Made by a program: the position numbers and the translations under genes. Positions 6,579-58,321 of a stretch of DNA of 64,000 bases are shown here, piece after piece. Numbering within the stretch: the stretch's first letter is position 1; every line of letters starts with the position of its first letter. The DNA comes from Gekko japonicus (Eukaryota). Under the pieces are notes generated by a model. The model worked only from the letters and a program-made list of their open reading frames with translations, was not told where the DNA came from and ran no database searches. The stretch lies in the NCBI RefSeq assembly GCF_001447785.1, contig NW_015160220.1, positions 429,333 to 493,332 on the forward strand, given 5' to 3'.

Positions 6579-6618
6579 GTATCTGATGAAGTAGGCTGTA
6601 GTCCAAGAAAGCTTGCAC
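6579..6618 (+). ncRNA. Minimal type I hammerhead ribozyme motif (degenerate stems) in a Penelope-like repeat fragment
   Basis: GTAT-CTGATGA-A-GTAGGC-TGTA-GTCCAA-GAAA-GC-T-T-GCAC. Core boxes are intact and stems I/II are partly mismatched. Confidence 0.7.
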
Positions 6619-6769
6619 CACAATCAGTCTGTTAGCCGTCAAAGTTTTTAATGCTAGACAATTGGGATATTTTCACAAGCAATGACCATGTGAAAGGTAC
6701 ACACTTGTTGGGATATGGGAGAGAGCACAACTAAGAAAGTGCTAAGAGGAAGTTATACAGAACTTTGAA

Positions 6770-7645
6770 AGAGGTGATTGAGAGACTCTCTCTCTGGACT
6801 CAAATGATCTAAATAACTACCAGCTGGTGGCAGATTCCATTCTTGCATAAGGTGCTCAAACAGGTGGTGGCCATACAGCTTCAGACAATGTGGGAGGAGA
6901 CTATCTAGAGACCACTTTTAATCCAGGTTCTGGCCTGGTTTGGTGATGGAAACAGCCTTGCTTGCTCTGACCAGTTATCTTCACTGGGAGAGTGACAAGG
7001 GGAGTATGTCCTTGTTGATTCTCCTGGACCTGTCAGTAGCTTTCAACATCATCTCCATGGTATACTTCTGAAGAAGCTAGCTGGGCTGGGAGTGAGGGAC
7101 ACTGTGGTTCTGTAGTTCTACTCTTACTTGGCTGATCTATTAAAGTAGCCGGTCTGAGGGATTGCTGCTTGGCCCCATGCAACATGCTATGGAGTCCCAC
7201 AGGGATCTGTTGTCCCCAATGCTATTTAAGATGGAACCACTGGGAGAGTTCATCCAGGAATTTCAAGTGAGGTGCTACCAATATGTGGATGACATCCATA
7301 TCCATATCTCCTTAACAGGTGAGTCTGTGGAAGTCCTGAACAGGTGCCTGGACAAGGTAATGGGATGGATGAAGGCCAATAAACTGAAGCTCAGTCCAGA
7401 TGAGACTGAAGTGTTGTTGGTCAATGACTAAACAGCTCAAGGACTGAGGAATCAGCATGTCCTAGAGAAGGATGTACACACATACATAGACCCTGCTGAA
7501 GGAGCTGGTTCATAGCTTGGGAATTCTGAGCCTATGGTTGGAGGCTCAAATCTCCACTATGGCACACAGCAGCTTCAGCTGCAGTCCCTCCTCAGAAAGC
7601 TTGACTTGACTACCTTGATTGATGTTGTGATCATATCTAGGTTAA
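6770..7645 (+). mobile_element. L2-clade LINE, decayed reverse transcriptase fragment
   Basis: Frame-broken RT residues, including CYQYVDDIHI...RCLDKVMGWMKANKLKLSPDETEVL (ORF 7162-7431). Confidence 0.85.
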
Positions 7646-7659
7646 TACTCTTCTTAGAA

Positions 7660-8030
7660 GCAAGAATATGTGAATAAACTGTTGGAGATGGCTGAAAATG
7701 ACAAATTGTCATCATTGATGAGAGGGACAACAGACCCAACATTTCAAATGACATGGAAAAAACTGTATGATTGCTATAATATAAATGCATAGTTTAATGA
7801 AATTTTTGGTATTATTAATCTCTTTGAGTTTAATAGAAACTATGGTAAAAAGATAAGAGTATACAGAAACTTAAGCAAACCTATAGAAAGCGATTTAAGA
7901 AATTTTTTAAAAATATGGTAATAGAGTAATAAGAAAATATACTGATCTCTTTGTATGTCTTATGTATGTAAGTGGTTGTTTGTTTATATGTTGTATGTAT
8001 GTATGTGTATAATATGAAAAATAATAAAAG
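7660..8030 (+). mobile_element. L1/Tx1-like LINE 3' end
   Basis: ORF2 C-terminus-like peptide (KLLEMAENDKLSS...FQMTWKKLYD), then an AT-rich UTR with AATAAA. Confidence 0.6.
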
Positions 8031-8149
8031 TGTACCTATGGGTATTTTAAAAAATACTCTTCTTCTTTTGTTCTTTTTAATCTTCTTTTCATTAGAGTGC
8101 AGGGCTGAAACTCTGGAGCACCTATCCTAATCTAGACTGGGCATCAATA

Positions 8150-8775
8150 TGCTCAGTGTACAATTCTATATTTCAGGTATGTCCAACAGGTAGATTGCGA
8201 TCTACCAGTAGATCGCAGAGGAATGTCACTTTTCATCTGTATTCTAGCTGTTTTATGCTGAAAGACTTTTGTATACTCTTTATGATTATCAGGGGTAAGA
8301 TACAGAGTTTGTATTACCCTTGTGTTGAAACATATGCATTGGCTGTCCCAATTCAGAATGCTACTCCAATTCAGAATGCCAGTTCTTACTGCTAACACTG
8401 TAATGACTTGGGCCAGGGTGCTTGAAGAGCCTCCTTCTCCCATAATATCAATCCTGCCAGCTGACATTCTCTTCAAAGGTACTAAAGAGACACACATCCA
8501 GACACTTTGGATATTTGTTATCAGAACAATTAGGAGAGCATGTGCAGTTACCATGAGCGATTATCCAAGAAAATCTTTTTTCATATATTTATTTCTGGAT
8601 GTGTGTTGTTTTACAATGGTAATATTGACCACTGAGGAAGGCCCTAAGGGGCCGAAACACATATGGTCTACTAGTCATAAGATATATCCATCAATTGTAT
8701 ATGTAAAACTCAGCTCTGTGTGTAAAAAGTTTTAAAAGAGTCTGATATTTGGATCATTTCTTTTAACCTATTTTA
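8150..8775 (+). mobile_element. Non-coding Penelope-like element (pLTR-type) carrying a hammerhead
   Basis: Contains the hammerhead at 8627-8668, and its flank aligns with the minus-strand element at 22480-22565. Ends are approximate. Confidence 0.55.
8627..8668 (+). ncRNA. Minimal type I hammerhead ribozyme motif
   Basis: GACCA-CTGAGGA-A-GGCCC-TAAG-GGGCC-GAAA-CACA-T-A-TGGTC. Stems I and II are perfect 5-bp helices and the core is intact. Confidence 0.85.
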
Positions 8776-9965
8776 TCTTTTACTAATGCGTACACCATAA
8801 TAAATATTTGTCTTTTTATAATAACTTATTTTGTTAGCTTGACCCTCATATATCACAGCCATATCTTGGGTTGAGTCCCCCCACCCTTTTTTCCTCAGCT
8901 TTTGCCTGAAATGCCACACCTGAAAAGGGCTCAGCCCCTGCCCATAGCCTGACATGCTTTAGGCAAGATGCATGTTAACCATAGCAATGAAGGCAGAATT
9001 GCATATAGCTCCATAATTGTTTTCCCTGAGGGTTATTTTTAAAAACCATGGGCATGGGAGGAGAAAAGCCAGCTCTCTAGCACCATTTTCACAGAAAAGT
9101 TGCCACCACCACTCCCAGCTACTTTTACCCCAGCAGAGAGAACATATTATTTTTTCCTCATTGCAGGTAGAACAGCTTAGGGAATGTGATTTTTAGCTGG
9201 AAGAAAGGATAAGGATTAGATAGCCCCTCCTCTGTCCTGCTTCTCTGCCTTTTAAAATCTCTACCCATGTCAATGTAATAAAATCCCAAGAATTATTCAC
9301 AACATGTAGTTCTGCCCGGGGTTCTAAGTCCAAGTTGCAAGTAAGCCAGGCAGTACAGCCTTAATGCACTCATTCGAGCACAGCAGGAAAAGGAAGCCTG
9401 GAGAGGCAGAGGGGAAACCAGATAATATAAAACAGAAGACTAGAGAAATATTTACTCTGTGCTGCCAATGGACTGTGAGTTGTAGTATACACATTCAACC
9501 CCCTTTTGAGACTTTATTTGCAGAGTTCATTGAGGTCAGAAAAGAAGTTGCCAGCTGCTTCGAATGGTGTATGTGTGTAAAAGCATCATCAAATATTTGA
9601 CTAGCCACAAAGACCAGTAGAGAGACAATCACTTACATCCAGTGACTGAGGACAAAAGTAGAGGGAAATTGACAATAGTGCAAGTTTGCCTTGCACAAAG
9701 TGGAGACTATGGCTCTATGGGAGAGGGGGGTACGGCAAAGGTTTCAGTGGAGATAGGCTTGGGGAGACATAGAAGGCTGCTTGATGAAAAGAGAAGTGGA
9801 CGGGATAAGTAGGTAGCAAAGGATACAACTGATTTTATTATTTTCTGGATATCTATTCACAGGAAGCACAAAAGCCTTTCCCATGCCAAGGTAATTTTCA
9901 GCACTTTTTACAACAGATGTTTTTCAATATTGCTTTAGTATGAATGTTCTGAAAATGGATGGTGA

Positions 9966-10145
9966 GAAGAGCTCTTCTAGGTCAGACCAGTTGTCCTGAA
10001 AGGCCCAGGGCATAGAGGCCAAGGCTTTCCTCTGATGTTGCTTCCTTGTGCTGGTATTCAGAAGATTCCTACCTCGGTATGCGGATGTTCCTTTTAGTCA
10101 CCATGGCTAGTAGCTATTGATGGACCTATCCTCCATGGATCTGTT
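9966..10145 (-). mobile_element. CR1 LINE 3' UTR fragment
   Basis: Similar to the CR1 3' ends at 33826-34070 and 59266-59520. Confidence 0.65.
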
Positions 10146-10187
10146 TAATTTGTTTCAATAAGAGGAACCATTTATTTCAGTATTCTT

Positions 10188-10448
10188 GAGACCCAGTTTG
10201 GTGTAGTGGTTAAGTGCATGGACTCTAATCTGGGAGAACCGGGTTTGATTCCCCACTCCTGCACATGCAGCTGCTGGGTGACCTTGGGTCAGCAACAGTT
10301 CTCACAGAGGTGTTCGCTTGAGCAGCTCTCTGAGAGCTCTCTCAGCCCCACCTACCTCATTGGGTTTCTATTGTGGGAAGAGGAAGGGAAGGTGATTGTA
10401 AGCCACTCTAAGTGAAGGGTGGGGTATAAATCTAATCTCTGTTCTTCT
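10188..10448 (+). mobile_element. tRNA-derived SINE (Squam3-type)
   Basis: A box TGGTGTAGTGG, B box GGTTTGATTCC, MIR-like core and TCT tail. Homologous to 25518-25807. Confidence 0.85.
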
Positions 10449-10587
10449 CTTATGACTTTCTGATATGATGGAAAGCTGCATCCAATATTTATCTGCAAAA
10501 ACTTTCCCTTTTTCTTTTCAGAAATTATTTCACTTGCGACAGACATGTGACTATAATGTTAACCTTTTGAATGAATGGTGGATATGT

Positions 10588-10898
10588 TAGGGTTGCCAGG
10601 CACGATCATTGTGCCAGCGGGGGGATTTGAGGGGCAGTCCAGGTGACACCCCCAGTGTGATGTTCTGCTTTTTGGGCAAACTCTATAGTTAAAATTGGGC
10701 TCAAACCATAGAGTTTTGCCCAACAAGCAGAGCGTCACAGTGCGATGACACTGATGCAATGACGTAACTTCTGTGTGATGTCATCATACTGGGGACGTTG
10801 CTGTGCAGTGTCGCTGTTCAGGGACGGGGCTTCCACCACCTGCCAGAGCCCCAAAAATCAGGGGATCCCCCACCAGGACCAGGGGTCTGGGAACCCTA
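10588..10898. mobile_element. hAT-type MITE (TAGGGTTGCCA termini)
   Basis: Termini TAGGGTTGCCAG...CTGGGAACCCTA with an internal palindrome. The TSD is not clean. Confidence 0.75.
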
Positions 10899-11215
10899 AT
10901 ACTTGTCTTGCTGGCAAACATAGAAAAACTGGACTTTCTCTTTTTATTTAAAATCATTTTAAAACATGTTCTGTAATGATGACCAAAAAAAGATAAATGA
11001 ATGCAATTATCAGGTTATGACTCCAGACATCCTTGGCTTCTTAGCAATACTTTTTGACTCAAATGAGATATTTCCTCATATTCTAATGAAAGTCTATATA
11101 AAATTATTTATATCCAAACCAGTAGTTGGTATAAGGCATACAATTAGGCTGATAGCTATTATTTGTGCAGCAACAAGTGCCCATACCTTTCTATAAATGT
11201 AGGTTAATGGTGAAA

Positions 11216-11453
11216 TTCAGAACCTAAAAAGGTTAGTCAAGGATAGAAGAGAGCCAACTCTAAAAATCATACAAAAATATACATGTATTTATTACACACA
11301 AATTAAAATAACAAAGAAGGGCCGATGTACATACATGTATATTTTTGTATGATTTTTAGAGTTGGCCCTCTTCTATCCTTGACTAACCTTTTTAGGTTCT
11401 GAATTCTAAGATTTAGGTTCAGTTTTTGTCCCTTTTCCCTTTTTGTCCTTATT
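11216..11453 (+). mobile_element. Short retro-insertion with inverted 5' duplication (Penelope-like), 14-bp TSD
   Basis: 75-bp inverted arms at 11214-11288 and 11331-11405. TSD GGTTAATGGTGAAA at 11202-11215 and 11454-11467. A second copy is at 54710-54801. Confidence 0.7.
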
Positions 11454-11859
11454 GGTTAATGGTGAAACCCATTAAAATTAAAAAGTGTACATTTGGGGTT
11501 GCTTATAACTTTTCCATGCAGCTGCCATTGGTTACCCTTCACATAGCTAAGTATTTGTACCAAAAAGATGATATCGTCCAGACATATTTTCCAGGAATCT
11601 CTGTCAGGTTAAGTCCAGATTAAGTAAAGATCCATTTTGATTGGTCCATCCTTGTGGTGAAACAGGTATCAAAGAGATGCCTGAAGTGAAATATAGAGGC
11701 TTGGATACACAAGGTAATTTACATGAATGGGTGACAAGCATGACTTATACCCCAAATGCCCCCTGAAATGCTGCCCACGCTATGGCACAAGAAGCAAGAT
11801 GAGAAAGTTGCTCTCAGCCAGTGGAAAGGCTCTGGTGGATCCACGCCCACCCCACTGAG

Positions 11860-12303
11860 CTCCCTCCCCTCCCCATTTTCTGCCCCCCTAATATCCAGGA
11901 TTTTCCTGACCCAGAGTTGACAGCCCTAGATGCTCCCTCTTTGCCTGTTGTTTCTTGGCTGGTGTTTCTCTCTTATGGCTGCCAGATCACAGGGCTCCAG
12001 CTGGCTGAATTTCTTGTCAGGGAATCAACTCCAGGCCTAGCAAGTCCTATGAGACCTCATTTCCCTCCTTTGCCCTCCCTCCCCTCCCCATTTTCTGCCC
12101 TCCTAGGCTCTGCCCCCTAATATCCAGGATTTTCCCGACCCAGAGTTGACAGCCCTAGACCCTCCCTCTTTGCCTGTTGTTTCTTGGCTGGTGTTTCTCT
12201 CTTATGGCTGCCAGATCACAGGGCTCCAGCTGGCTGAATTTCTTGTCAGGGAATCAACTCCAGGCCTAGCAAGTCCTATGAGACCTCATTTCCCTCCTTT
12301 GCC
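11860..12303. repeat. Tandem duplication (215 + 229 bp)
   Basis: Copies at 11860-12074 and 12075-12303 differ by about 3 substitutions and a 14-bp indel. Confidence 0.9.
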
Positions 12304-13063
12304 TGCCCACCTCTTCCCTGCTCATAATGCACAGTTCCAGTTCAACTTGGCTTCTTTCCATAGATTGTCACTGTTTCCTTGCGTTTCAGTTTCTCAGCCT
12401 GTTCCCAGCTTTGCTTCACTGCCTTTAGTTATCCTGAGTTTGGATCTGTCCTCACACAACTGCTCTCTCTCCTTCCCTACCATTCATTGCCTCTGTTATG
12501 TTCTGAGTTTATTCTATGCTGTTTGGTTATGGGTTGTGCTAAGGTATCCTAGTTTCCTTTGTCGTAATTGGCTGTCTAATAAAGACCTTCTAGTGGTCCT
12601 GAAGCCATACAGAGTACCCTATCAGGAAGCTCCACTTAGGTCCAATCAGACCTCATGAAAGTAGCAACATTGTATATAGTTCAATATTGGAATGGTATAA
12701 GTCTGGGTGCCGCTCTTATCAGAGCAGATCAGAGCTGAGTAATGTTATGAATAAAGCCTTGAACTGAGAATCGTCTCCCGCCTTTCAATACACTAAAGCC
12801 TCCTGTGTGTGTGGTTTACTCAACCCTTCCACATTTTCGTTTGTTTTTTAATATTTCTGTCTCACCTTATGAAACAAGTCTTTCCAAGGAGGCTAAAAGA
12901 AACATGTACAAACATGACATGTAATAAATGAAAGTAGGAAACTTTCAGCACTGGTCAAAGTTGAAAGCCAATAGCAGCAGCAGCAGCAGCAGCTATTGGC
13001 AGTCCTTGGTCCTGCACTCAGATTGGGAGAGGCTGCAGGTGGTTGACAGCTGGCCATGCAAAT

Positions 13064-13414
13064 GGTTGAGATGATATCTGGCATCGATTGGCATTCATCA
13101 GCTTCCACTGGTCGTAGCCAAGCCAAAATAAAGCTAAGGGAAATGTTATGAATACGTGGGACAGCAGAGCTTATAAAATCTATCACATCACATACCCTCA
13201 CTGGCACTGTCATTCTATTTAGACATGACACACATTTCCGGTTGAGATGATATCTGGCATCAATTGGCATTCATCAGCTTCCACTGGTAGTAGCCAAGCC
13301 AAAATAAAACTAAGGGAAATTTTATGAATACGTGGGACAGCAGAGCTTATAAAATCTATCACATCGCATACCCTCACTGGCACTGTCATTCTATTTAGAC
13401 ATGACACACATTTC
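13064..13414. repeat. Tandem duplication, 176-bp period
   Basis: Copies at 13064-13238 and 13240-13414 differ by 5 substitutions. Confidence 0.9.
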
Positions 13415-13829
13415 TGCACTTATCCTTCTTTACCCTGTAATCTCTTAAATGGAACATGTCAGTTACAAGAAAGAGGATATGATTAGTAAAAATGCTTGTA
13501 ACTTGATGCCTGGTGTTATGACAGCCTGGTTGGTCCTGCAGCGGGGCTTGGATGTTGAAGACGTGGCTCAGTCACTGTGGAAATAACTGGATTTGATGGT
13601 TCATTGCATTCCTTAGTTTAAGACTTCAGTTTTAAACCACATACTTTGCTATCTGTTTTATGGGACCATAGGTTAAGTTGCTGGTGATTCTTTCAATTGC
13701 ATTTTTAAAAAGCATGGGGTTTTGTGTTGTTTTTATCATAGTTGTTGCGAGTTGCTTCCACCTGCAAGGCAAGGTAACTTCTATAAATTGTGGTCACTAG
13801 ACTCAAGGCAGGTACTGGAAATATAAGCA

Positions 13830-14365: not shown

Positions 14366-14513
14366 GCACAGTATCTATTATTTAAATAAGATGTAAATAA
14401 ACTGGATGGTAGTTAATGAAAACCAAAACCATTAAAACCAAAGCAGTATTAAATCCCACAGGGAGTTGCATGCTATTTGCATAGGTTTTGGTCTTCTGTT
14501 CATGGGGTGCAGT

Positions 14514-19613: not shown

Positions 19614-20889
19614 AAGGTAGAAGAGGGAAGGTACAATGTCAGGCTGTACATCTACAATCATGTTATGCTAGATGAGGAAAGCCAGATTCCCCAAACTTCT
19701 AATATTTAGTGCCGCACTGTATTTAATGTACTTCATTTATTCCCCATTGTTCTCCTCTCCTCCATTTTATCCCTCACAACAACCCTGTGTGGTAGATTAA
19801 GCTGAGAGTGTTCATATTAATCATTTTATTCCAGATTTGAATAACCACCACTGAGAAAGCCTATAGGAGTCACTGACTGCATTTCTGGGGATGGAAACAC
19901 ACAGGGAAAGACCTCTCCAACAGTGAATAAAGCTCTTTTAGTACTGGCAGAACCTAACACCAAACAGTAACCTTGCTACTGTGTTTTGCACTAATGGAAA
20001 CTTCCAAACAGTCCTTAAGGGCAGTCTTACATAAACTGCTTATTAATGAAAGGCTGCAGTTTATTCATCAGATTAACCACAGCAGAGCCATCATAAGTCA
20101 CAGAAGAGGATTGTGCTTCACTCTATAAAACTAAATGTTACACTACCCAGAAGCTGTGAACCTGCAGTTTTAAGATAAGTGCAACTATCCATAATCCTCT
20201 GTTAGTTGTATTGACAACCAGGTGGACAAGATGTCACTTGTCAGGGCTGAGCTCCAGTTTGTTAATTCCCACCCAGTTCATTGTCAGCTCAAAGCACTTG
20301 TTCCAGATTGCCACTGTCTCAACTGCGTCAGATAAAAGACAGCTGGGTGACGCTACCATATTGATGACACCTTACTCCAAATATACAGATGATCAAGGTC
20401 ACCAGCTTTATGTAGACGTTAAACAGCAAGATCAAACCTCGTAGCACAGGTGCCCACAGTGTGCTGGAATACAGCAGTACCTATTGTACAAAGAAGAAAG
20501 AAAATCCTGCAAGGGGCAGCAAGCTGTAACTAGACAGGACTGTAGGGGGAGTACCTTCCTTCAAAAATGGGGCTCTCCTTGTCAGATTGCAGATTTTCCC
20601 CAGAACTATCTAGAACCCTTTCTCAGCTAGTGAGTCAACTAAGTTCATCTCTTCTCTTTTCCATATGGTTTGTTAGTTCCATAAATAAAGCTTTTATTAC
20701 TCTTCCAGTAACATCTTTTGATATCATTCTGACAGACTAGAATCCCTAGCACATAGTGCCTTCAATATCCTTCTCAGTCAGTCAAACTTGAAAGTTTCCA
20801 CAGTCAGTGTATCTCTTCTCTAGTGAACAGCATCAGTCAGGGAAAATAAGGCAGTTCCTGTTCCAGAACCAGGGCTGGAGGTGGATTGA

Positions 20890-21462: not shown

Positions 21463-21881
21463 NNNNNNNNNNNNNNNNNNNNNNNNNNNNNNNNNNNNNN
21501 NNNNNNNNNNNNNNNNNNNNNNNNNNNNNNNNNNNNNGTTTCCACAGTCAGTGTATCTCTTCTCTAGTGAACAGCATCAGTCAGGGAAAATAAGGCAGTT
21601 CCTGTTCCAGAACCAGGGCTGGAGGTGGATTGAATTGGATCTAGATTAAGGTTGCCAGGTCCTTCCTGGCAACCAGCAGGGGATGGGGGAGACTTACCAG
21701 TAGAAAAAAAGGCCTAGGTCACATTGCCAGCATCACATAGGAAGTGACATCATCAAGCCAGCAACTTCCAGCCAACGCTCTGGTATTTGGGCAAAATTCT
21801 GTAGTAAAACTAGCTTCTACCATAGAGCTTTTGCCCAAATACCAGCCCATCACCTGGAAGTCACTGGCATGATGATGTCAC

Positions 21882-23334
21882 CTAGAAGGTTGAGCAGCTA
21901 AAACATAGAACAAAATAATCTATTTATTACAAAGTGCATAGTAACTACAATTTTTAAAAATACATGCATAGAATGTAGCTCCAAACAGAGAGGTAGTGAG
22001 TATCATATTACATCCACATAGCATACAGCAGCAAATGTAAGTTGCATGCAATGTTCCCTTTAAGCTGTGGAGTCCTGTGAGCAAAAATTCTACTTTGTGA
22101 GCCACTGGCATTAAAGTTGTGAGCCAGCGATTGGGCTACTGCATCAATTAGTCTGCTCTAGAGCCATCCTTCCTGAGTGAGGACAAAAATGTGTGAGCTG
22201 GAGGCTAAAAAACTCTGAGCTAGCTCACACTAACTCAACTTAGAGGGAACACTGGTTGCATGCAATGTTCCCTCTAAGCCGTGGTGTCCTGTGAGCAAAA
22301 GTTCTACTTTATGAGTTACCGGCATTAAAGTTGTGAGCGAGCAATTTGGCTACTGCATAAATTAGTTTGCTCTGGAGCCATCTTTCCTGAGCGTAGACAA
22401 AAATGTCTGAGCCAGAGGCTAAAACTGTGAGCTAGCTCACACTAACTCAGCTTAGAGGGAACACTGGTTGCATGTACAATAACTAAGACCAAAATATTGG
22501 TTATACATACCATAACTACTAGACTAAATGCATATTGGCCCTGAGGGCCCTTTTCAGTGGTCTAAATACTAACAAACATTAACAACACACACTAGAAATG
22601 TAAATATGAATATCTGTTCCAGGCCAGGCAGGTTGTATGTGAATCAACATAATAGTGTAGCTCCAAATAATAGTTACAAAGTATTGATGTCAATCAGGCC
22701 TGAATCTATTGAGGAGCCCACACCCATCAAATATGATAGCTTTATGCAACCATTCTGCCCTTGGCCATTGCTGTATTCACTATGGACGAGTTCAGACTGG
22801 GAGTTCGAAGCGAGAGGGAGTCATGGCAAAAAAGACCCAGAACAAACTGTTTCGGGTTTTCCTGTTCACACTGCAGAGACTGATGCAAGAGCATACCGAG
22901 AGAAGGCGCAAGGGATCTGGCAGAGGCATGACTGTAAAGCCCGGTTTTCTTTTTGGTAATCTGGAGATATGCGCATAGGCATATAAGCACACAAGAAAAA
23001 CACGGCTTTTGGCGTCCACACTTTGTTGGTGCGGGACGGACACGGGATAATTGTGCTTTCCAAGGTTTGATACCACTTTCACCTGGTATATTTTAAACTT
23101 GGGAGGGAAGCATTACCAGATAGGTTGAGTACGGCTCAGGAAAGCTGGACAGATGTGCTTGTGTAAATGGCCCCTTTAATCTGGTTGTGGAACGGGCTCG
23201 GGAAAGCCGGACAGATGTGCTTGGCCCCTTTAATCCGGTTGTGGAACGTTTCTGAAACGTGCCTATATCGGGGCTAACTGCCAGTCTGAACTCAGCCGAT
23301 GTGTGTCCATGTGTCATCCAAAAGTGAAGAGGCG
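21882..23334 (-). mobile_element. Non-coding Penelope-like element with a decayed hammerhead (22563-22521)
   Basis: Minus strand reads AGACCA-CTGAAAA-G-GGCCC-TCA-GGGCC-AATA-TGCA-T-T-TAGTCT, homologous to 8627-8668. Has an internal ~55-60-bp tandem repeat at 23133-23248. Confidence 0.55.
22049..22466. mobile_element. Head-to-tail dimer of a hAT MITE (22049-22254, 22263-22466)
   Basis: TIRs CAATGTTCCCT / AGGGAACACTG on each unit. GTTGCATG occurs at 22041, 22255 and 22467. Confidence 0.92.
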
Positions 23335-27522: not shown

Positions 27523-28058
27523 CTACTAATGAAAAAAGTATTGAATTCATAGCAGGTCTAGAGAAAGAGAGATTTCCCACTGATTTCCCATCAGCAGAAT
27601 CCTATAATTTTTGTCTATGATCTGTAGGAATGGCAAGGATGCACATTAAGAGTTTTTGAATGAGGTTTCAAAGAAGTGGTTTTCAAACCATGGTTCAGGA
27701 CCCAAACGTGAGTTGTGATTCTCTCACAGGTGAGTGACAGGGTGAGGAGGAGGCAAAGAATGAGTGGAGAGGAGGCTGGGTGGCTAATTTGGCTTGCCTC
27801 TACATAGTTCGCAATTATGAACACAGCCGCTACACATTTACTAAAGTGAAAAATAAAGTATAGACCTGTTGAGTGTTCATTGATAGGATATTCTTAGATT
27901 TTATGTCAGGAAAGGAGCGCATAATGTGACATTTCTTTGCAAGTGGGACCCTAAAAATACATAAAGTTTAGAATTGTGAGTCCCATTTACAAAAGTTTGA
28001 GAACTGGTGTTTTAAAGTATGATTGAAGTGGGTTTCTAAAGTGTGTTTGTATTTGCAT

Positions 28059-28150
28059 TAGAACAAAGTCTGGGTCCAGCAGCACCTTTAAGACCGACAA
28101 AGTTTAATTCTGGGTATAAGCTCTCATGTGCACACACACTTCCTCAGATA
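28059..28150 (-). mobile_element. Penelope-like pLTR fragment with hammerhead motif (28150-28114; GAAA changed to GAGA)
   Basis: Minus strand reads TAT-CTGAGGA-A-GTGTGT-GT-GCACAT-GAGA-GC-T-T-ATAC. Same family as 58196-58321. A partial plus-strand relative is at 28282-28368. Confidence 0.75.
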
Positions 28151-29163
28151 TTTGTATTTAAATATTTGGTGTTTTAAATACAGTGTTGCTAGCCACCTTG
28201 AGCACTATTTTTGAAGACAGGCAGCTTGAAAATGCCATAAATGAATAAATCAATAGTGTCGCTTTTGAAGATAGTTCCAGTTGTGTATGCAGACAGAAGC
28301 TCATACCTTGAATAAACCATTGTTGGTCTTAAAGGTGCCAATGGACTCTAAATTTGTTCCGTTGCTTCTGAAGTTACTAGATGTGTTTTGATGGTGCAGA
28401 AAGTAGAAAGTAGTTTCATTTTCTTTTATGTTATTTCAAAGACCACTGAGGCACAGCACAGGTTATCAGCAATAGCTGTACAGCTGACAGAAACATAGAT
28501 ATGATGCTGCCTTGGGTACTGAATGCTATTTTGCCAGCTGCAAAACTGGCCAAGGCAGTTCTCAAAGGCACTGCTGAGTTTTAATTATCTTTATTTTTGT
28601 GGGTGCAGCAATTTAGATGAAAAAGGCTGCTATGATTCCCACTGATAATTTTCAGCTTTGTAAAGGGCTGTCATGATTTCTGGGGACACCAGCATCAATA
28701 CTGGGAAAGAAGCTTATTTTTTCTTTCACATAATTGAATGAAAATAACTGTTAGTCTTTGTAGAAAACAATGTTAAGAAAATCCATTCGTACCTTTAAAC
28801 CTTTTTTCTTTAATGTATAATGCTTGGGGCTATATTGTAGGCTACTTCATCCCAGTGGGACTGGTAGGGTCAGCTGCTTCCTCCTAGTGGGGAAAGCAGC
28901 TGTTGGAATGTTTATGCAAGGATTCTTGAAGAAATCCTTGTCAGTGAGGCTTATGCATGGGGAAGTCAAGGCCCAAAACAAGGTTCCTCTCCGCAGGAAG
29001 TGACAACCCTTACTCCCAGCAAAGTGTTCTTAGGGCTATTGGTATAGTCACATTTCTGAATAAATTCCTGTTCTGCGGTCTCATGTTCCACAGTTCCACA
29101 TAAGTATTCTGAGGCCTCTGATGAATTCAGTCATCTTACCTCATCACAGCAAACCAACTTTTT

Positions 29164-37989: not shown

Positions 37990-38105
37990 TTGTTAGTTGC
38001 TGTAGATTTTCCAGGTTGTGTGGCCATGGTCTTGGCATTGTAGAACCTGACGTTTCACCAATAACTGTGACTGGCATCCTCAGAGGCATAACACAGAAAG
38101 ATGGA
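37990..38105 (-). mobile_element. Penelope-like pLTR fragment
   Basis: Hosts the hammerhead at 38086-38046, followed by a PLE-type 3' segment. Boundaries are approximate. Confidence 0.7.
38046..38086 (-). ncRNA. Minimal type I hammerhead ribozyme, intact core, GUC cleavage triplet
   Basis: CCT-CTGAGGA-T-GCCAGT-CACAGTT-ATTGGT-GAAA-CG-T-C-AGG. Confidence 0.87.
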
Positions 38106-40154
38106 AAGCCTTCGACAACAAAGTAATAATTTCTCCACCACACAAAGGTGCCAGGTAATGTATGAAACAAGGCTTTGCATCAGGCATCATCTTAGGAAAC
38201 CTGGGATTGGGTCCAGCGCAAAATTTCTGCTTGAACTAGAGCTTTTGTACAAGTGGAAACACAAGAGAACTCATGCTGGAGCCAGTGCCACTGGCACTAA
38301 GCCAGACTTATTGTACGCTCACTGGCATTTTGGCTTGTGCAAGATGTGCAACCAATTTCTGGGCACTATAATAGAAAGGGATAATTGCATTAGGTGTTGC
38401 ATAAGCTCAAGCACAAGTGGAACTGCACAGAATCCATTTATGTTTCTGTTTGTGCATCTCTAGATCCAGGTTCTTGTTCGGTACACTTTCTTATCCCCAA
38501 TGACTTTAAGATTTGGACTGAACTCAAAAGCCAGAATGCCCAGTGACTTTGGGATTTGGACTGAACTCAAAAGCCAGAATGGCTGGCCATGAAAGTCCTA
38601 TAGATTTTACTCATCTGACAAAGGCATTTCCCCAGTCTGTAAAGAGCCCGCACTTACTATTTTTCACCATTCTAAGGAATGGGAGGGAAAGGGGCTTTGC
38701 ATGCTGAAGATCCCAGAATCAATCCCTGTCATCTCCAGCTAAAAGGATTAACAGTAGTAGGTGATGTGAAAGACTTCTGCCTGAAAACTTGGAGAACTAC
38801 TGCCAGTATGACTAGACAACATTGATTTTGCTAGGCCAATGAGGCCCTTTCATGTGTTCAAAGCTATGCTGAAATACAGCATGAAAGTTCTGGGTTACTT
38901 GCCTTTGCTCAGTGAAGTTCAGAATGAAGTTAAACTTGTATGCAATTGTAACTGACAACTTCTATTATATTCCTTCTGCATAGGAATTTCCATCTCCTAT
39001 TCCCTTAATAAAATAAGAACAAACTCCTCATTGTATGGCAATTTAAAATGAGATATTTTGTTTTGTAAAATATAAACAACTGCAACTTACAAAGTAGCAA
39101 ATCAACATGTTCATACCTGCAGGTGGGCTGTCTTAAAAAAAAAAAAAACTCCCTTGAAATTTCTGTGCTCAGACAGTAGGGGGTGCTCTAAGTTCAATGG
39201 TGTTATTTCTCTGCAGCCAAGCATACTTCCCTTCCTTAATATTGGTCCCAGAGAAGTACATCCAAGCAAATGCCCTAACTTGGTTCCTCAGTCAAAGGGA
39301 TGCAGCTGCTCTTAAAGTAGTCTGCAGATTAATTTCCTTGTGATTCTAGAATTGTTTTGAGGGCAACAGTGACACAGTTGTCTTCTTTACAAGAGAGTAT
39401 GGCATTTTCTTACACAAAGATATCATATTGATATTTATATAGTGCCATTTATGTACATGACACATTCATAGAGAATCACCCAAACAACAAATCTGCAGCC
39501 AAGAAGTTTACAATCTACGAAAAAAACACTTTGAGGAAAAGTAAAAAGCAGGGAGAGAGAAAGGTTAGCAAAAGGAAAATGTGAACAAATGCAGTTACAT
39601 AGGCTTACAGTGAAATCCTTAAGCAGAAATATACTTTTCCATGCCCATTGACTTTAATGGATTTAGAAGAGCATAACTCTCCTTAGGATGGTACTGTTGA
39701 ACTTGGTTACACATTTGGAATGAGGACTAAGTGGTTAGTTTTAAGTCCTCCCAGGGGGAAAGGGGAAGGGGTTAGGATAAATCTGAAAAAAGTGAAGGTG
39801 AGTAGTGGTATCTTGTCCGTGTGTTGGGAAGAAGTTCCATATTGCAGAGCAGTGGGTCTGCAAGGTGTGTACACCAACACGGATGGAGAATGCTCTATCT
39901 CTTGCCACGTGTACATTCACTCAGAAGTTGAAACCAGCTGTGTGTACACCCAGTGAAAACGTTGTGTGTGCATATTCTTCACACATACTAGTGTACACAT
40001 GTTGCACATAGGAAAATAGATGTGAAGCAGCTCTTTGTGTTTTGATTTCTCATGTTTATCAAAGGTTGTGATTCAGGGATATACTGGAAACATTGAAGTA
40101 AGTAGACAAGAACACTGATTACCTTTGCAGTTTACACCCTTCTAAGTCAAATTA

Positions 40155-40373
40155 ACCCTGACCTGAATGGCCCAGGCTAGCCTGATCTGGTCAGTTTTCA
40201 GAAGCTAAGAAGGATCATCCCTGGTTAGTACTTGGATGGGAGGCCACCAAGGAAGTCCAAGGTTGCTACGCAGAGGCAGGCAATGACAAACCACCTCTGA
40301 ACATCTGTTGCCTTGAAAACCCCGTGAGCAATCACCATAAGCTGGCTGCAACTTGATGGTACTTTCCACCACC
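40155..40373 (+). mobile_element. 5S rRNA-derived SINE with RTE-like tail
   Basis: 5S internal-promoter region GAAGCTAAG...CCTGGTTAGTACTTGGATGGGAG, an RTE-type 3' end and an approximate TSD AAGTCAA(A)TT. Confidence 0.82.
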
Positions 40374-41500: not shown

Positions 41501-41515
41501 GTTGTTACTTGGTCA

Positions 41516-48592: not shown

Positions 48593-48651
48593 TTTGGCTA
48601 ACACTGAGTCATGCAAATCAGGTAGTATCAGACCACCCAGAGGGTGGTGCC

Positions 48652-51187: not shown

Positions 51188-51782
51188 TCTCTCTATATAA
51201 TAATTCTGTTTTGGTCATGGACTCTCCTGAACATTCCACATTCCCAAATCAGTTGGCTCCCTGATCTGTTGCTCAGAAGCTGTCCCTATCCACTGGCTGT
51301 GTTGCCTGAGTCTCACCTCCAATATTCTAAAAATATTGTTGTTCCTCTCCCCCCAATAGCCAGTCAGAACACAGAGGTAATTTGCATATGCGGCCTGATT
51401 GGCCTTTGCCTCTAACATTCTAGACTGTTTGTTGTTGCTGCGAGGAGTAATTGAATGCGTCCGGAGATAAAATACATATCCAAATTTTCCCTTAAACAGT
51501 CACTGGAGTTGCCAAAATACATATCCCAATATTCCCTTAAATGATCACTGGAGTTGCCAATCTCCCTGTGGGGCCTGGAGATCTCTCAGAAATCACGGTG
51601 TTCCCCAGCCACAGCACATCATTTCCTCTACAGAAAATTTCCCAGGTATTACAGTGGTTGCTTTGGACAGTGGAATCTATGGCATTATACCCTGCTGAAG
51701 TTCCTCCGCACCCCAAACCCTGCCCTCCCCAGGCTCTAACCCTCAAATCTACAGGTATTTCCCAACCCATTGTTGGCAACCC
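51188..51782 (+). mobile_element. 5' part of the same Helitron family plus MITE unit
   Basis: A|TCTCTCTATATAAT start. 51188-51430 is the reverse complement of the 36900-37154 segment. The 3' end was not identified. Confidence 0.6.
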
Positions 51783-52188
51783 TGTAACTGGCTATGGAAC
51801 TGCTTTCTAGACCCAGAAGACATGGCATAGGAGGAGGTGCTTTTCTACCTTAGCTGCCACTGCATAACCCCAAGTCAACATAAGTCAGGGGTGAAGGGAA
51901 CCATACCTGTTACCATGAGACTGTCCTCCCATAGTACCCACTTGGGGCAGCAAAATGACTGGAGACAGCCCTGCCGTATAGCTAAGCAGAATGAAATAAA
52001 CATGGCTTGCCTCCCTCTATTTTCCCCTTCCCTCTGCCGCCCCACCAGCCACAGCCGGGACACTCACCTGGAGCTTCCTTCTAGAGCTCGTATTTCTTCC
52101 CAAAACGGGCCTTACTCCTAGTCACTAATAAAGTATAGCTGGTCACTAGACTTGGGGTCTGCTCATCCATGGAACCCACTATTTAACA
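51783..52188 (+). mobile_element. Possible solo LTR (406 bp)
   Basis: TGTAAC...TTAACA termini and AATAAA at 52127, about 55 bp before the end. The TSD is not clean. Confidence 0.5.
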
Positions 52189-53056
52189 CCTCTTCTTTCC
52201 CCTCCATCTACTTTCACATACCTTTCTTCCTCTTTCTTTGCCTTCCTTGATTGGCTGTCACACCCTTCAACTTCAGCTGGCTTTGAGGTGTACTAAAGAT
52301 GGACAGAGGAGTTGCAGTAGTAGCACTAGAATAGACTGGAGAGGGACAAACTCCAGTCACTTTCTGGGAAATTTGAGCAATAGGTGCAGTTTGAAGATAA
52401 TGGGCACCTGACCTTGTAGTTTAGCTCCAATTTCATGTGTTTGCCTGAAACACTTTAACTGCAACAAGATTTGCTGAAAGGGAGAGGGACACACACTATG
52501 AGAAGGGAAAGTAAGTATCAGAAAAGCTGGAAGATATGAAAAGGAGGACAATGTGGGATTTATGCTTCCCTTGGCTTAGCTATTCCACCCTAAAATCTAC
52601 TGTACAGTGGCTTGTGGATGGCTCAGTACTGGTTTAAACAGGATCTCCCCATCAGAGCCCTCAATCCCACAAAGTCTTGCAGATGTTGACTAATTCCAGA
52701 GATGTAGCAAAATTACCCAGGAGTCCATTAGCACTTGAAAGACTAGGGCTGCCAGCTGGCTAAGGAAAAAGCAGCCTGTCCCTTTAATGGAGGTTTAATG
52801 TGTGGAAATTGGCAGCCGAAGCCTTTTGTGACATGAAGGTAAAAGACCCGATCAATTCCCAGCAAAAAAGGGGGGAGGGGATCTAATAAGTCTACCTTTC
52901 ATACAATTTTTCACTTTGATAAATATTAGTAAGCTTTGATAATGTCACAATTACCAAAATGTTACTTGATGCCCTAGAGAACCTGGAATTTTTCTATATT
53001 TCCCTCCAAATATTTCATTTAACTGAAACTTTGTTTTAAAATATGTATGGGTTATG

Positions 53057-53780
53057 GTCATTTGAAATGTAGTGCTGGAGGAGAGTTTTACAGCTACCAC
53101 GGACTGCCCCAAAAGACACATAAGTGGGGTACAAGAGGTGGTTTTTATACCCTGCTTTTCTCTAGCCTAAGGAGTCTCAAAGTAACTTAAAATTGTCTTC
53201 CCTTCCCCTCCCTGCAACAGGCACCTTGTGAAGTACGTGGGGCTAAGGGAGTTCTGAGAGAACTGTGACTGGCCCAAGGTCACCCAGCAGGCTTCATGTG
53301 AAGGATTGGGGAATCAAACCTGTTTCTCCAGATTAGAGTCTACCACTTGTAACTACTATATCACGGTGGAGCATAGAGCAGATCAAGCCTCAATTCTTCC
53401 TAGAAGCTAAAATGACTAAACTGAGGTTATTATATTCTGGTCACATCATGAGAAAAGACACTAGAAACACTAGAAGAGATAATTACACAAGGAAAAATTG
53501 AAGGCAGTAGGAAAAGAAGACTCAAGAAGACTATAGGCTTCAGTTTTAAAGACCTGGGCAAGGCTGTAACCTGAGGTTATTATATTCTGGTCACATCATG
53601 AGAAAAGACACTAGAAACACTAGAAGAGATAATTACACAAGGAAAAATTGAAGGCAGTAGGAAAAGAAGACTCAAGAAGACTATAGGCTTCAGTTTTAAA
53701 GGCCTGGGCAAGGCTGTAACTGACAGGGCATTCTGGAGGTCATTAATTCATAGGGTTGAAGCGACTTGATGTCACAGCAC
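53057..53780 (+). mobile_element. RTE/BovB-like LINE 3' fragment interrupted by a minus-strand Squam3-type SINE (53137-53370)
   Basis: FEM*CWRRVLQLPRTA...EQIKPQFFLEAKMTKLRLLYSGHIMR. Contains a 150-bp tandem duplication at 53421-53720. Confidence 0.82.
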
Positions 53781-54709
53781 ACACTCACGTGGGCTAGGGT
53801 CCCCATGACAGCCATTTTATGCTAGCATCCACTATCCTTTCTCAAAACACCGGTAGTGCACATAGGTTCAACAACTCTGTGGCTCTCAGCCAGCTATCAC
53901 CACATTTTTTTTCTCACTGTAGACTGTACAGAATATGAGGTGCTTCCTATTGGGGGTAGGTGGAAAATACTATTTCCTTGTCTCCCAATATGGGCTTCAT
54001 GACAATGTCAAAGGCCTAATGCACATTATTAAATGGTAAGAGTGATTTGAAGTGTTAAGAAAAGCATCTGACATTATCAAAGCCATATGTCATTTCTCAG
54101 ACTTGTTTCATGAGTTTGGTTACTTAATCAAGTCCAGATTCATCTGGGACATTCGTTTATATACATACAGCTCAGTGCAAACAAGTTTAATCCTTTTGTT
54201 TTCAAATGTCCACATTAAATGCAAATTCGCATGGATGAGCATGCATACACTCGGGGCAAATTTTAAAATGTTCCAGTTTGCGGTTTAAAAGAAATGTGTG
54301 TTTTAGAATATAACTGGAGCACAGCTAAGTATGAGAGAGAAAGAGTTATCACTAGAACTCTGGCCTTCATTGGAAGCCACAATCTCTGATTCCTCGTTCA
54401 ACCTAGGCGCTTGTAGTGCCTCGAAGGAAAGGAATTTTGCCTTAAGTTACTTTACTTGCCTACGAGAAAATAACCCTTGAACACAAGCATCAGCCCATTC
54501 TCCAAGTCCAAACTCCAAAGGCAAATATATTTGAAAATAACTTTAGCCTTTTGCTCACTGATGTGAAATATTAAGCAGAAATCTAATAATCCTGAGAAAG
54601 AGTTGGTCTCTCACTATGCAGTCAGTTGCTCTGGGCACCAGATGTCTCTTATAAATGTGATGCAGGACATGTTTACTGTTATAAAAATTATGTTGTTGTT
54701 GTTGTTCAA

Positions 54710-54801
54710 AAAGGACAAAGAAGAAAAAAGGGGAAAAAACTGAACCTAAATCTAGAATTCAGAACCTAAAAAGGTTAGTCAGGAATAGAAAAGGGCCAAC
54801 T
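54710..54801 (-). mobile_element. Second copy of the 11.2-kb Penelope-like family, running into a gap
   Basis: Reverse complement of ~11359-11450. Confidence 0.8.
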
Positions 54802-56066
54802 NNNNNNNNNNNNNNNNNNNNNNNNNNNNNNNNNNNNNNNNNNNNNNNNNNNNNNNNNNNNNNNNNNNNNNNNNNNNNNNNNNNNNNNNNNNNNNNNNNN
54901 NNNNNNNNNNNNNNNNNNNNNNNNNNNNNNNNNNNNNNNNNNNNNNNNNNNNNNNNNNNNNNNNNNNNNNNNNNNNNNNNNNNNNNNNNNNNNNNNNNNN
55001 NNNNNNNNNNNNNNNNNNNNNNNNNNNNNNNNNNNNNNNNNNNNNNNNNNNNNNNNNNNNNNNNNNNNNNNNNNNNNNNNNNNNNNNNNNNNNNNNNNNN
55101 NNNNNNNNNNNNNNNNNNNNNNNNNNNNNNNNNNNNNNNNNNNNNNNNNNNNNNNNNNNNNNNNNNNNNNNNNNNNNNNNNNNNNNNNNNNNNNNNNNNN
55201 NNNNNNNNNNNNNNNNNNNNNNNNNNNNNNNNNNNNNNNNNNNNNNNNNNNNNNNNNNNNNNNNNNNNNNNNNNNNNNNNNNNNNNNNNNNNNNNNNNNN
55301 NNNNNNNNNNNNNNNNNNNNNNNNNNNNNNNNNNNNNNNNNNNNNNNNNNNNNNNNNNNNNNNNNNNNNNNNNNNNNNNNNNNNNNNNNNNNNNNNNNNN
55401 NNNNNNNNNNNNNNNNNNNNNNNNNNNNNNNNNNNNNNNNNNNNNNNNNNNNNNNNNNNNNNNNNNNNNNNNNNNNNNNNNNNNNNNNNNNNNNNNNNNN
55501 NNNNNNNNNNNNNNNNNNNNNNNNNNNNNNNNNNNNNNNNNNNTGTGTAGCTCGTCTGACTCCTGCATGACAGCCCTGTGTATTACTGGAGCCAAGCTAA
55601 CTTACCTGTGCGTGGTTTTTCTTTCTCACGTCATCCTTTTTGTCTCAACGGAGACCTAACCAAAAAGAAAACCTTTTTTTCAAGCCTTGGCAACCTTAAC
55701 TTGGAGCATGGCTGTTATACTCAAGAGAAGTTCTTGGTCCATGGAGGAAATTATGTAGCTGATACAGCAAAAAAAAAAGTGATGAATGAGTTGGAAATGT
55801 CTATATCAAATGCCATTTATAGATCNNNNNNNNNNNNNNNNNNNNNNNNNNNNNNNNNNNNNNNNNNNNNNNNNNNNNNNNNNNNNNNNNNNNNNNNNNN
55901 NNNNNNNNNNNNNNNNNNNNNNNNNNNNNNNNNNNNNNNNNNNNNNNNNNNNNNNNNNNNNNNNNNNNNNNNNNNNNNNNNNNNNNNNNNNNNNNNNNNN
56001 NNNNNNNNNNNNNNNNNNNNNNNNNNNNNNNNNNNNNNNNNNNNNNNNNNNNNNNNNNNNNNNNNN
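54802..56066. other. Assembly gaps (54802-55543, 55826-56066); smaller gaps at 4527-4537, 21463-21537 and 40965-40986
   Basis: N runs. Confidence 1.
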
Positions 56067-57220
56067 GCCATAAAAATAAACTATTTTAATAGATATATAA
56101 ATAAAAAAGCTTAATTTTCCCCCCTGTTCCCATTCCCCCCTCCTTTAAACATACATGATTTTGCTATTGTAAAGGAACCTGAACAACCATATTCCAAGTG
56201 AGTACACAGTCAATCACCTAGGACATGTTTGGAAACAAACACAGAATGAAATAATGCACCTGAATAACTCTTCGTTTTACAGCTACTTTTGATTTTACAG
56301 TACTTTTCAAATACAGCTTCATGAAATACAGATCTCAGAAATAACAATAGAATACCCTCTTCAAAACTACAGAAGTCATTGGATAAATTGTGACTTGAAA
56401 TAAATTATGCCATTTATGCTTTGTAAGTTGCAATACCTTCCATCCCACCTTGCCTTGGCCTGGTGCGAAGAAATTAGCCATCTGTCACAGCTGCTACATG
56501 ATCTCACTTTGCTTGGGAATGACCAGGCTTCTTCCCTCTCTCCCACCACACACACAAGCAAAGAAAGTGCAACGGAATCCAGTGTCTGCCCCTGGTTGGT
56601 CTGCAGAATTCTGCAGGAAGACATAGGGACAAAGACTAGTGGAATAGGCCTAGTTTTTCAGGCCTATCCCCACTCCTCACTTGCCCAACAATATCTGACT
56701 GTGGTGTTTAAAAGTGGAGAGCGTCAAGATTCCATCTCATAAACTGTCTCCTGTGAAAACTGCTGGAAATGGAAGGAGTCAAGACACCCCATATTTTCTG
56801 GAATTCAGTTCCTGACTTCAGTGTAGCTGCAATACTACAACCACCATACAGCTGCTCAGAAGCCTAAACATCCATGAACTTTGCCTTTTGGCTTGTGCTT
56901 CCATAAACCAACAATGGTACTAGGTTGCATGCATGTTTCATTAATTCATTGCTTCTGGCTACAAGCCTGACATATAAGGAATCAAAAGAACTTTCTGTGG
57001 GCTGTCACTCTGATTCACTGGTGGGCACAAGGGCTCCAATGTGAGCAATGGGGCTCCCACAGCTGCAAGACTACCCTGATCACCTTAATGAACATGGGAC
57101 ACTTTTTGAGTGCATGTGGGGAGTCCACTCATACTGGAACTTTGTCCACTGCAGCACTTTAAAATCCAGGTATGGTTTACAATCCATCAAGCATAACAGC
57201 AGCTCATTTTCCACCCACAG

Positions 57221-57509
57221 ACTGATTCCCCACAAGCAGCTGTGCCGCCGTCACTCTTCCGTTTCCCCTGGTTGTATTGGTCAATTTCACACTATTGTCT
57301 GTGCGGCCACATTTTGAGCCGCATCTCCCCCCAATTTCCCCCGCATCTTTTGATCCTAAAAAAAAAAAAACAGGATCGAGAAGATGCGGGGGAAATCAGG
57401 GGGAGATGCAGGTCAAAATGTGGCCGCACAGCAAATAGTGTGAAATTGACCAATACAACTGGGGGAAATGGAAGAGCAACAGTAGCACAGCTGCTTGTGG
57501 GGAATCAGT
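57221..57509. mobile_element. Fold-back MITE, PIF/Harbinger-like
   Basis: ~138-bp inverted arms around an A-run. Termini ACTGATTCCCCAC / GTGGGGAATCAGT and possible 3-bp TSD ACA/GCA. Confidence 0.8.
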
Positions 57510-57572
57510 TGCAGTGTAACAAGTAGAGGAACCTTTGTAGCAGTTGTTGTTGCTGTGAGAACTGCAGTCCTT

Positions 57573-57730
57573 CATAAGAACATAAGAGATGCCAATGTTG
57601 GATCAGGCCAAAGGCCCATCCAGTCCAACACTCCGTATCACACAGTGGCCAGAAATACCAGTGCCATCAGGAGGTCCACCAGTGGGGCCAGGACATTAGA
57701 AGGCCTCCCACTGTTGACCCCCCCAAGCAC
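57573..57730 (-). mobile_element. CR1 3' UTR fragment
   Basis: CATAAGAA tail repeats. Homologous to 59266-59420. Confidence 0.85.
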
Positions 57731-57968
57731 CACCTTCCATTAAGCATAGCCAGTCTGGTACGGTGATTAGAATGTCTGGATAGGACCAGAGGGGCTATGA
57801 AACTCACAAAGTGATCTTAGGCCAGTCACTCTCTTTCACCATCACAGAGCAATGTCACACAGTCATTGTGTGAAGTTAAAATGGCCAGAGAAATATAGGT
57901 GGTAAGGGGAGGGAGGAGAGGATGCAGAACGTTCCTATATCTCTGGCCAGTTTCTTCATACCCTTCAT

Positions 57969-58098
57969 GCATCTGATGAAGAGAGCTGTGTTTCTCAAAA
58001 GCTTATCCTACAGTAAACTTTGTTAGTCTTAAAGGTGCTACTGGGCTTTTTACTATTTTGCAGCAATAGACTAACACGGCTAACTCCTCTGGATCTAT
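57969..58098 (+). mobile_element. Penelope-like pLTR fragment with hammerhead motif (57969-58008; GAAA changed to AAAA)
   Basis: GCAT-CTGATGA-A-GAGAGC-TGTG-TTTCTC-AAAA-GC-T-T-ATCC. Confidence 0.75.
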
Positions 58099-58195
58099 GG
58101 ACAAAAATGGTAAGAGACAGAACTAAGCTTTCACGTGCCTGCACATTTCATTAGATACATACAAGTGTTAAGGCTTGAGGAAAACTGTTTCAACA

Positions 58196-58321
58196 TATCT
58201 GAAGAAGTGTGCATGTACATGAAAGCTTATACCCAGAATTAAACTTTGTTGGTCTTAGGTGCCACTGGATTCAAACTTTGTTCTATTGCTTCAGACCAAC
58301 ACAGCTATCCACCCAAATCTA
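58196..58321 (+). mobile_element. Penelope-like pLTR fragment with intact-core hammerhead (58196-58232)
   Basis: TAT-CTGAAGA-A-GTGTGC-AT-GTACAT-GAAA-GC-T-T-ATAC. Confidence 0.8.

Follow-up and report, generated by a model that had tools for sequence, protein, structure and literature searches.

Damaged minimal hammerhead ribozymes of three families in an intergenic stretch of Gekko japonicus, likely remnants of Penelope-like retroelements

The minimal type I hammerhead ribozymes of metazoan Penelope-like retroelements are recognised by one extra base between positions 9 and 10.1, a G10.1–C11.1 pair, a palindrome made up of positions 15.2–16.2 and loop 3, and covariation within the stems (Cervera and de la Pena 2014, PMC4209133). 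The same paper describes them as occurring mostly as single copies, with several families per genome, opposite-strand pairs 100–700 bp apart and examples from reptiles, and gives about 4,000 intact descriptor hits for coelacanth and about 9,000 for Xenopus. Here we report on a stretch of 64,000 nt from Gekko japonicus (contig NW_015160220.1, positions 429,333–493,332; referred to below as the window) which contains nine repeat copies bearing hammerheads of this form. We think it probable that these are damaged minimal type I hammerheads lying in stubs of three families, which are likely the 5′-truncated ends of the pseudo-long terminal repeats (pLTRs) of Penelope-like retroelements, were likely copied from uncut RNA, and have been decaying neutrally.

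Three other published systems are relevant to these copies. In the anole Poseidon element PAc, the open reading frame (ORF) runs from stem II, with C3 and G8 before the start codon and the cut 26 nt after it; cleavage was obtained only with the element's protein, insertion proceeded from uncut RNA, and no RNA-seq ends fell on the cut site (Frangieh et al. 2024, PMC11167929). Penelope insertions are typically truncated at the 5′ end and have inverted copies next to them, and the role of the hammerhead in them has been called unclear (Craig et al., PMC8557442). Finally, short hammerhead repeats have been described as non-autonomous Penelope derivatives, with cleavage in one of the nine dimers tested, and such retrozymes were reported from four of five reptiles sampled, with a mean length of 176 bp in reptiles and many monomers (preprint 10.64898/2026.07.22.740005). 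In the literature covered here, which lay outside Repbase, subscription journals and the closed supplements of preprints, there was no paper on a hammerhead ribozyme in a gecko, nor a genome-wide count in a lizard.

The nine copies are labelled h1–h9, with C3 of the core used as the anchor, and on sequence homology they fall into three families, A, B and C:

6579..6618, + strand: h1, a family A remnant with an AGCU palindrome, a G10.1–A11.1 mismatch and partly broken stems; H17 at 6614
8627..8668, + strand: h2, family B, with both boxes, a 5-bp stem I and the G10.1–C11.1 pair intact; stem III is ACACAU and no longer a palindrome, with A as H17 (8663)
22522..22562, − strand: h3, a family B remnant with both boxes mutated (CUGAAAA and AAUA) and AUGCAU in stem III
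28042..28151, − strand: h4, a family A stub with its hammerhead at 28114–28151, GAGA in place of GAAA, and G10.1–U11.1
28282..28371, + strand: h9, a family A stub truncated within the hammerhead and without the CUGANGA box, head to head with h4 and ~130 nt from it
37991..38087, − strand: h5, family C with a Poseidon-type layout, hammerhead at 38045–38087, an ACGU palindrome and G10.1–U11.1
57936..58099, + strand: h6, a family A stub of the second subfamily, hammerhead at 57969–58008, G12 changed to A and one stem I pair broken
58121..58158, − strand: h8, a family A remnant with G5 changed to A, ending just past the cut site and head to head with h7
58195..58321, + strand: h7, a full-length family A stub of ~127 nt, hammerhead at 58195–58232, boxes intact, G10.1–U11.1 and one stem I pair broken

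Family A (h1, h4, h6, h7, h8 and h9) has ~90 nt of common sequence beyond the cut site, with identities of 83% over 111 nt between h4 and h7, 69% over 116 nt between h6 and h7, and 68% over 71 nt between h1 and h6. Family B consists of h2 and h3, which are 70% identical over 98 nt and have ~50 nt upstream in common, and family C of h5 alone. The original prediction had claimed seven hammerhead motifs of the minimal type I form seen in Penelope-like elements, drawn from several families, and we found all of them in place, the coordinates given there being the low ends of the motifs (the C3 positions are h1 6583+, h2 8632+, h3 22557−, h4 28147−, h5 38083−, h6 57973+ and h7 58199+). The one extra nucleotide claimed between position 9 and stem II was likewise found in all seven, and a single unpaired base between 9 and 10.1 is present in each of the eight copies that could be parsed (h1–h8). 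Two copies go beyond the original seven, h8 (C3 at 58154−) and h9 (~28282–28371+).

The core of CUGANGA, GAAA and UH in type I order is intact with its stems in h2, h5 and h7, and the core alone is also intact in h1, so that both boxes are literally intact in four of the seven motifs; h3, h4, h6 and h8 have one to three core changes each, among them AAAA for GAAA in h6. Since the pattern is short and degenerate, chance matches need to be considered, and we searched the window with a type I descriptor that asked for the boxes, the extra base, four of five stem II pairs, three of four stem I pairs and UH, using 300 dinucleotide shuffles in 2-kb blocks as the chance control. Sites without a core mismatch numbered three against a shuffle mean of 0.03 (maximum 1), and sites with at most one mismatch numbered five against a mean of 0.47 (maximum 3). 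Two of the seven motifs, h1 and h3, are too decayed to pass even the one-mismatch descriptor, and an Rfam scan had no hammerhead family among its 32 matches at E up to 5, which would favour chance; however, h1 and h3 are assigned by homology to h6 and h2, respectively, and the majority letters of the family mend the broken stems (see below), making a chance origin of the motifs extremely improbable.

Of the four published hallmarks, the extra base and the palindrome are present in the window copies, and the G10.1–C11.1 pair and the covariation may be recoverable. The stem III palindrome at 15.2–16.2 is found in seven of the eight parsed copies (AGCU in the five of family A, ACGU in h5 and AUGCAU in h3), the one without it being h2, and the ACACAU of h2 and AUGCAU of h3 would both derive from ACGCGU by CpG transitions. 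G is found at 10.1 in seven of the eight, where the 10.1–11.1 pair is G–C in three (h2, h3 and h6), G–U in three, G–A in one and A–U in one. Across the stems of five family A copies from the window, 83.6% of the cells are paired, a level reached in 5 of 500 shuffles.

Every window copy is damaged in its core or in a stem. The original prediction placed much of this decay at the CpG spanning C11.1 and G12, and the counts agree, as CG is kept in one of its seven motifs, replaced by UG or CA in five, and by AG in one. With h8 included, the dinucleotide is CG in h2 only, UG in h4, h5, h7 and h8, CA in h3 and h6 (and, by eye, in h9), and AG in h1, and six of the eight parsed copies therefore show a CpG-type change. 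This is the path expected of methylated repeats, because the CpG observed/expected ratio is 0.19 in the window outside the promoter island. G12 is the general base of the hammerhead (PMC6155905), and h3 and h6 are predicted to be dead because they have lost it. Further, h4 lacks A14, h8 lacks G5, h5 and h7 keep their boxes with a G–U at 10.1–11.1, and h2 keeps its core but has no palindrome available for dimer pairing. Folded as free monomers, both stems form only in h2 (−16.5 kcal/mol) and h5, and a long hairpin is predicted between h7 and the antisense h8. We rejected self-dimer folding energies as evidence, as the predicted dimers pair through stem II and not through the stem III palindrome. 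The isolated window copies are predicted to be inert rather than cutting, and are likely dead fossils.

The h8/h7 pair (58121–58232) forms an arrangement of its own, with the two copies 41–45 nt apart and head to head; the predicted hairpin has a weak microRNA-like fold in the Rfam scan, and could yield double-stranded RNA if transcribed.

The abundance and borders of family A were assessed by piling two RNA runs (X21 and X22) and two sets of DNA contigs (X5 from organism A and X14 from organism B) on positions 57800–58460 (661 nt) at 80% likeness. This collected 33,530 contigs from X5 and 26,659 from X14. The summed X5 depth over h7 was 4.6–6.2 million compared with 72–89 on the unique flanks, a ratio of ~52,000–86,000, with 54,000–75,000 in X14 and ~4,500–8,000 for h6 in the bin at stem III; summed depth is a rough measure which covers family A only and is not a copy number. 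We take it to suggest tens of thousands of related, mostly decayed family A stretches. The original prediction of a very large multi-family pool of ribozymes is supported in that family A is very abundant, but the word pool is an overstatement when each copy in the window has core or stem damage.

The majority letters of the pile-up mend three broken pairs, at 58007 in stem I of h6 (315,661 of 323,688), at 58195 in stem I of h7 (229,181 of 249,251) and at 58216 in stem II of h7 (3.04 of 3.20 million). Stem I reads GCAU/AUGC in the majority of h6-type copies and GUAU/AUAC in h7-type copies, and the two family A subfamilies thus differ by a compensatory stem I pair. The flanks are heterogeneous both before 58196 and past 58313–58321 (agreement 0.36–0.48), which defines a ~127-nt stub beginning at stem I; Penelope-like elements are expected to have a 30–40 bp tail and an AT-rich target, and the loose-end consensuses past 58313 look AT-rich. 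Depth is the same 12 nt before the cut site (3.20 million at 58216) as after it (3.38 million at 58270), and sequence upstream of the cut site is kept in all six family A copies in the window, and for these reasons the copies are likely to have come from uncut RNA. One X14 contig spans the 3′ junction of h7 (58286–58450, 12 differences), indicating that this insertion is older than the split of organisms A and B.

Such sharp common borders might instead belong to a self-standing unit of ~125 nt, retrozyme- or SINE-like (short interspersed element) and non-autonomous, derived from a Penelope terminal repeat and multiplied from master copies or tandem arrays of its own with a borrowed Penelope protein, rather than to a series of full elements that were each truncated independently. 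Four of the six family A copies in the window start within a few bases of stem I, the flanks are heterogeneous on both sides, one contig connects 58306 back to 58196 head to tail, and a tandem-repeat peptide (P0003, considered below) resembles the start of the h5 ORF; multi-monomer retrozyme families have also been reported in reptiles (10.64898/2026.07.22.740005). However, the window has no tandem array of stubs, h6 reaches ~35 nt further upstream and has an inverted 5′ piece, h9 is cut within the ribozyme, and the RNA reads are without discrete ends. We therefore regard a unit of this kind as possible but rather unlikely. The same doubt attaches to a more specific proposal, which we offer tentatively, that family A is a ~125-nt mini-element, present in tens of thousands of copies in this lineage, and that its 5′ border reflects the folded ribozyme, with copying stopping at stem I, rather than cleavage. 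If this were true, the youngest copies in introns and untranslated regions would be by far the largest vertebrate ribozyme pool, and the role of the Penelope hammerhead could be tested by counting.

In the RNA runs, 10,314 of 16,753,912 reads (X21) and 1,005 of 16,260,634 reads (X22) were placed on 57800–58460, of which 111 and 3, respectively, were at least 99% alike; both directions were equal, and the unique flanks of h6–h7 were at an RNA depth of 0–2. There was no pile-up of read starts or ends at any place, the cut site included, in the two RNA runs, which are standard RNA-seq and whose fragmented cDNA libraries provide a weak test for cut ends. Family A is present in RNA through other copies, and the h6–h7 locus is without sign of expression in both runs.

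These results also have a bearing on whether some local copies remain active in RNA cleavage and are retained because the host uses them, for example to trim read-through RNA between the sulfatase and kinase genes on either side; the best candidates would be h2, h5, or a cis dimer of h6 with h7, which are separated by 226 nt. The kept boxes of h2, the monomer folds of h2 and h5, and the sharing of the h7 insertion with organism B would be in keeping with this, and domesticated hammerheads are known in amniote introns (PMC6155905). In contrast, h2 has no palindrome, h5 and h7 have U11.1, h6 has no G12, h7 is predicted to be taken up in the hairpin with h8, the unique flanks of h6–h7 have an RNA depth of only 0–2 and few X21 reads are near-identical to the locus (111 of 10,314), and h1, h2, h6 and h7 are on the opposite strand to both genes. 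A conserved cutting role for any of them is consequently very unlikely.

The link between the stubs and Penelope elements is indirect but strong, and is made by motif and layout. Both the 5′ truncation and the adjacent inverted 5′ copy are found here, as h9 is cut inside the ribozyme, opposite-strand joints occur in other copies, and an inverted piece lies beside h6:

57868..57935, − strand: inverted repeat-family fragment directly 5′ of h6 (57868–57895 compared with 57961–57936 at 82%)

This fragment coincides with a depth peak and opposite-strand joints in the contig pile-up. The h4 and h9 copies were considered as one inverted insertion and this was rejected, as they are separated by ~130 nt of unrelated sequence and are likely to be separate.

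The layout of h5 provides the closest tie to a described element. Its start codon ATG at 38077 (38075–38077, − strand) is made up of A9, the extra base and G10.1, H17 is at 38049, 26 nt downstream, and the ATG opens a likely ORF start of ~28 codons; families A and B lack this placing of start codon and cut site relative to stem II, which is peculiar to h5. The extra hammerhead base of h5 is also the T of the likely start codon, and coding and ribozyme constraints overlap at this base. An AC-rich segment directly upstream of h5 on the opposite strand (38092–38112, +) resembles the 'tail' of lizard Poseidon elements, and may be an inverted tail. Used as a query, the h5 peptide had three matches with E of at most 0.001 (of 1.84 billion searched), all to tandem-repeat proteins. 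Two of these look like chance; P0003, of 378 residues in ~51-residue tandem repeats and without an RT (reverse transcriptase) or GIY-YIG domain, resembles the h5 peptide (7 of 10 residues identical), and is likely a tandem array of Poseidon-type terminal repeats from a different genome, read as protein. The first 52 residues of P0003 found no longer relative.

A number of observations count against the derivation of the stubs from Penelope-like elements. The painted-turtle row that matches family A is without the asterisk for 'found in a PLE' (Penelope-like element) in PMC4209133, and what ties family A to Penelope is consequently the type and structure of its motif. Family B, for which a 4-nt CGCG-type loop is presumed, has no vertebrate row in the part of the table covered here, where it is mosquito elements that have such loops. 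Covariation is weak among the five family A window copies, where just two pairs have changes in both partners, a count equalled or exceeded in 163 of 500 shuffles. Similarly, we infer the ancestral CG of family A at C11.1 (58220) and G12 (57997) rather than read it from the majority letters. A Penelope-type RT/GIY-YIG was absent from the 150 scanned of 172 stop-free frames (at least 45 amino acids) near the sites, which is not a refutation because such an absence is expected of truncated stubs, and protein searches with the h5 peptide, the ESM Atlas included, yielded no full-length protein. The only mobile-element match in the frame scan was to a generic RT fragment between h1 and h2 (7144–7428, + strand; Pfam RVT_1, E 3e-6). 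Separately, exact-pattern scans for the three families had 0 matches in viral and metagenome contigs, which are collections not made for animal DNA.

The RT fragment, being the only one in the scanned frames and on the same strand as h1 and h2, together with the lack of a Penelope gene near the sites, would suit an origin of the stubs from some other mobile element bearing the same form of hammerhead, such as a long interspersed element (LINE) and SINE pair. No relative of the fragment was found, and it may be of the L2/CR1 LINE type from its general appearance. Unrelated sequence separates the fragment from both h1 (530 nt before it) and h2 (1.2 kb after it), there is no poly(A) or simple-repeat tail after h6 or h7, and the motif form, the inverted 5′ piece and the start-codon layout of h5 are all Penelope features. 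We accordingly give an origin from another type of element hardly any credence.

For the Penelope-like origin which we favour, the parent elements would carry the hammerhead in their terminal repeat, and a Penelope-type RT/GIY-YIG protein would nick the DNA and prime reverse transcription a short way downstream of it, as published elements lead us to infer. Copying would end soon past the hammerhead to leave a stub of ~90–160 nt with the whole uncut ribozyme and sometimes an inverted piece, and the methylated CpGs, that at C11.1–G12 above all, would then mutate. The parent hammerhead may cut only when two copies are paired by the palindrome (AGCU, ACGU or ACGCGU) or when assisted by the element's protein, as has been reported for other Penelope elements.

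All nine stubs are intergenic, at a density of at least nine in ~63 kb of called sequence, with a kinase exon on one side and a sulfatase exon on the other:

4011..4076, − strand: first coding exon of a kinase gene of the CaMKII-delta type (identity to CaMKII delta chain 5vlo_A at 20 of 20 residues)
61260..62885, − strand: long sulfatase exon (Pfam Sulfatase, E 3.5e-42)

We take these genes to be CAMK2D and, likely, ARSJ, and presume that they are neighbours by synteny. Several other features were noted in the window. An exact duplicate of 96 nt (20794–20889 and 21538–21633) flanks the N gap at 21463–21537 and is likely an assembly overlap artefact. Inverted repeats at 57221–57509 (129-nt arms, 89%) and 11195–11424 (97-nt arms, 89%) are likely DNA elements of the MITE type (miniature inverted-repeat transposable elements), and these long inverted repeats account for the microRNA-like Rfam matches. 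A weak 5S rRNA-like match at 40166–40263 (+ strand), scoring 28.6 bits and so below the gathering score of 38, is perhaps a 5S-derived SINE head or a pseudogene, and a 127-codon frame at 59480–59860 (− strand), without a Pfam match, looks like the C terminus of a LINE protein of the CR1 type.

This class of hammerhead has already been published, reptiles included (turtle, snake and anole: PMC4209133, PMC11167929), and our analysis goes little past a confirmation of known biology in another reptile-like genome, with the useful points being quantitative. These are the density of at least nine stubs in 63 kb, the family A depth ratio of about 50,000–90,000, and the kept upstream sequence, in keeping with the insertion of uncut RNA observed in vitro. 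A family as large as A would provide the numbers to ask if the core is retained in young copies and at which points their 5′ ends lie. The window copies are like other metazoan minimal hammerheads in being type I, with a stem I of 3–5 bp, a stem II of 5–7 bp, the extra base between 9 and 10.1, the palindrome and opposite-strand pairs, and differ from the published set (PMC4209133) in being decayed where those are intact descriptor hits. Family A is alike to the painted-turtle row of that paper (Figure S3) in stem I (GCAU/AUGC), stem II (GUGGG/CCCAC), the GCUU cut site and the flanks. The start-codon layout of h5, with C3 and G8 ahead of the start codon, is exactly that described for PAc, to which it is likened by layout and not by sequence alignment, and it differs in having ~28 codons only and U11.1. 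Finally, like the non-LTR retrozymes that have been described, the stubs are short, non-coding and dispersed as monomers, carry a hammerhead and are related to the terminal repeats of Penelope; retrozymes, a further mark of which is unit-length circular RNA, have tandem units with complete hammerheads, but the window copies are single and damaged.

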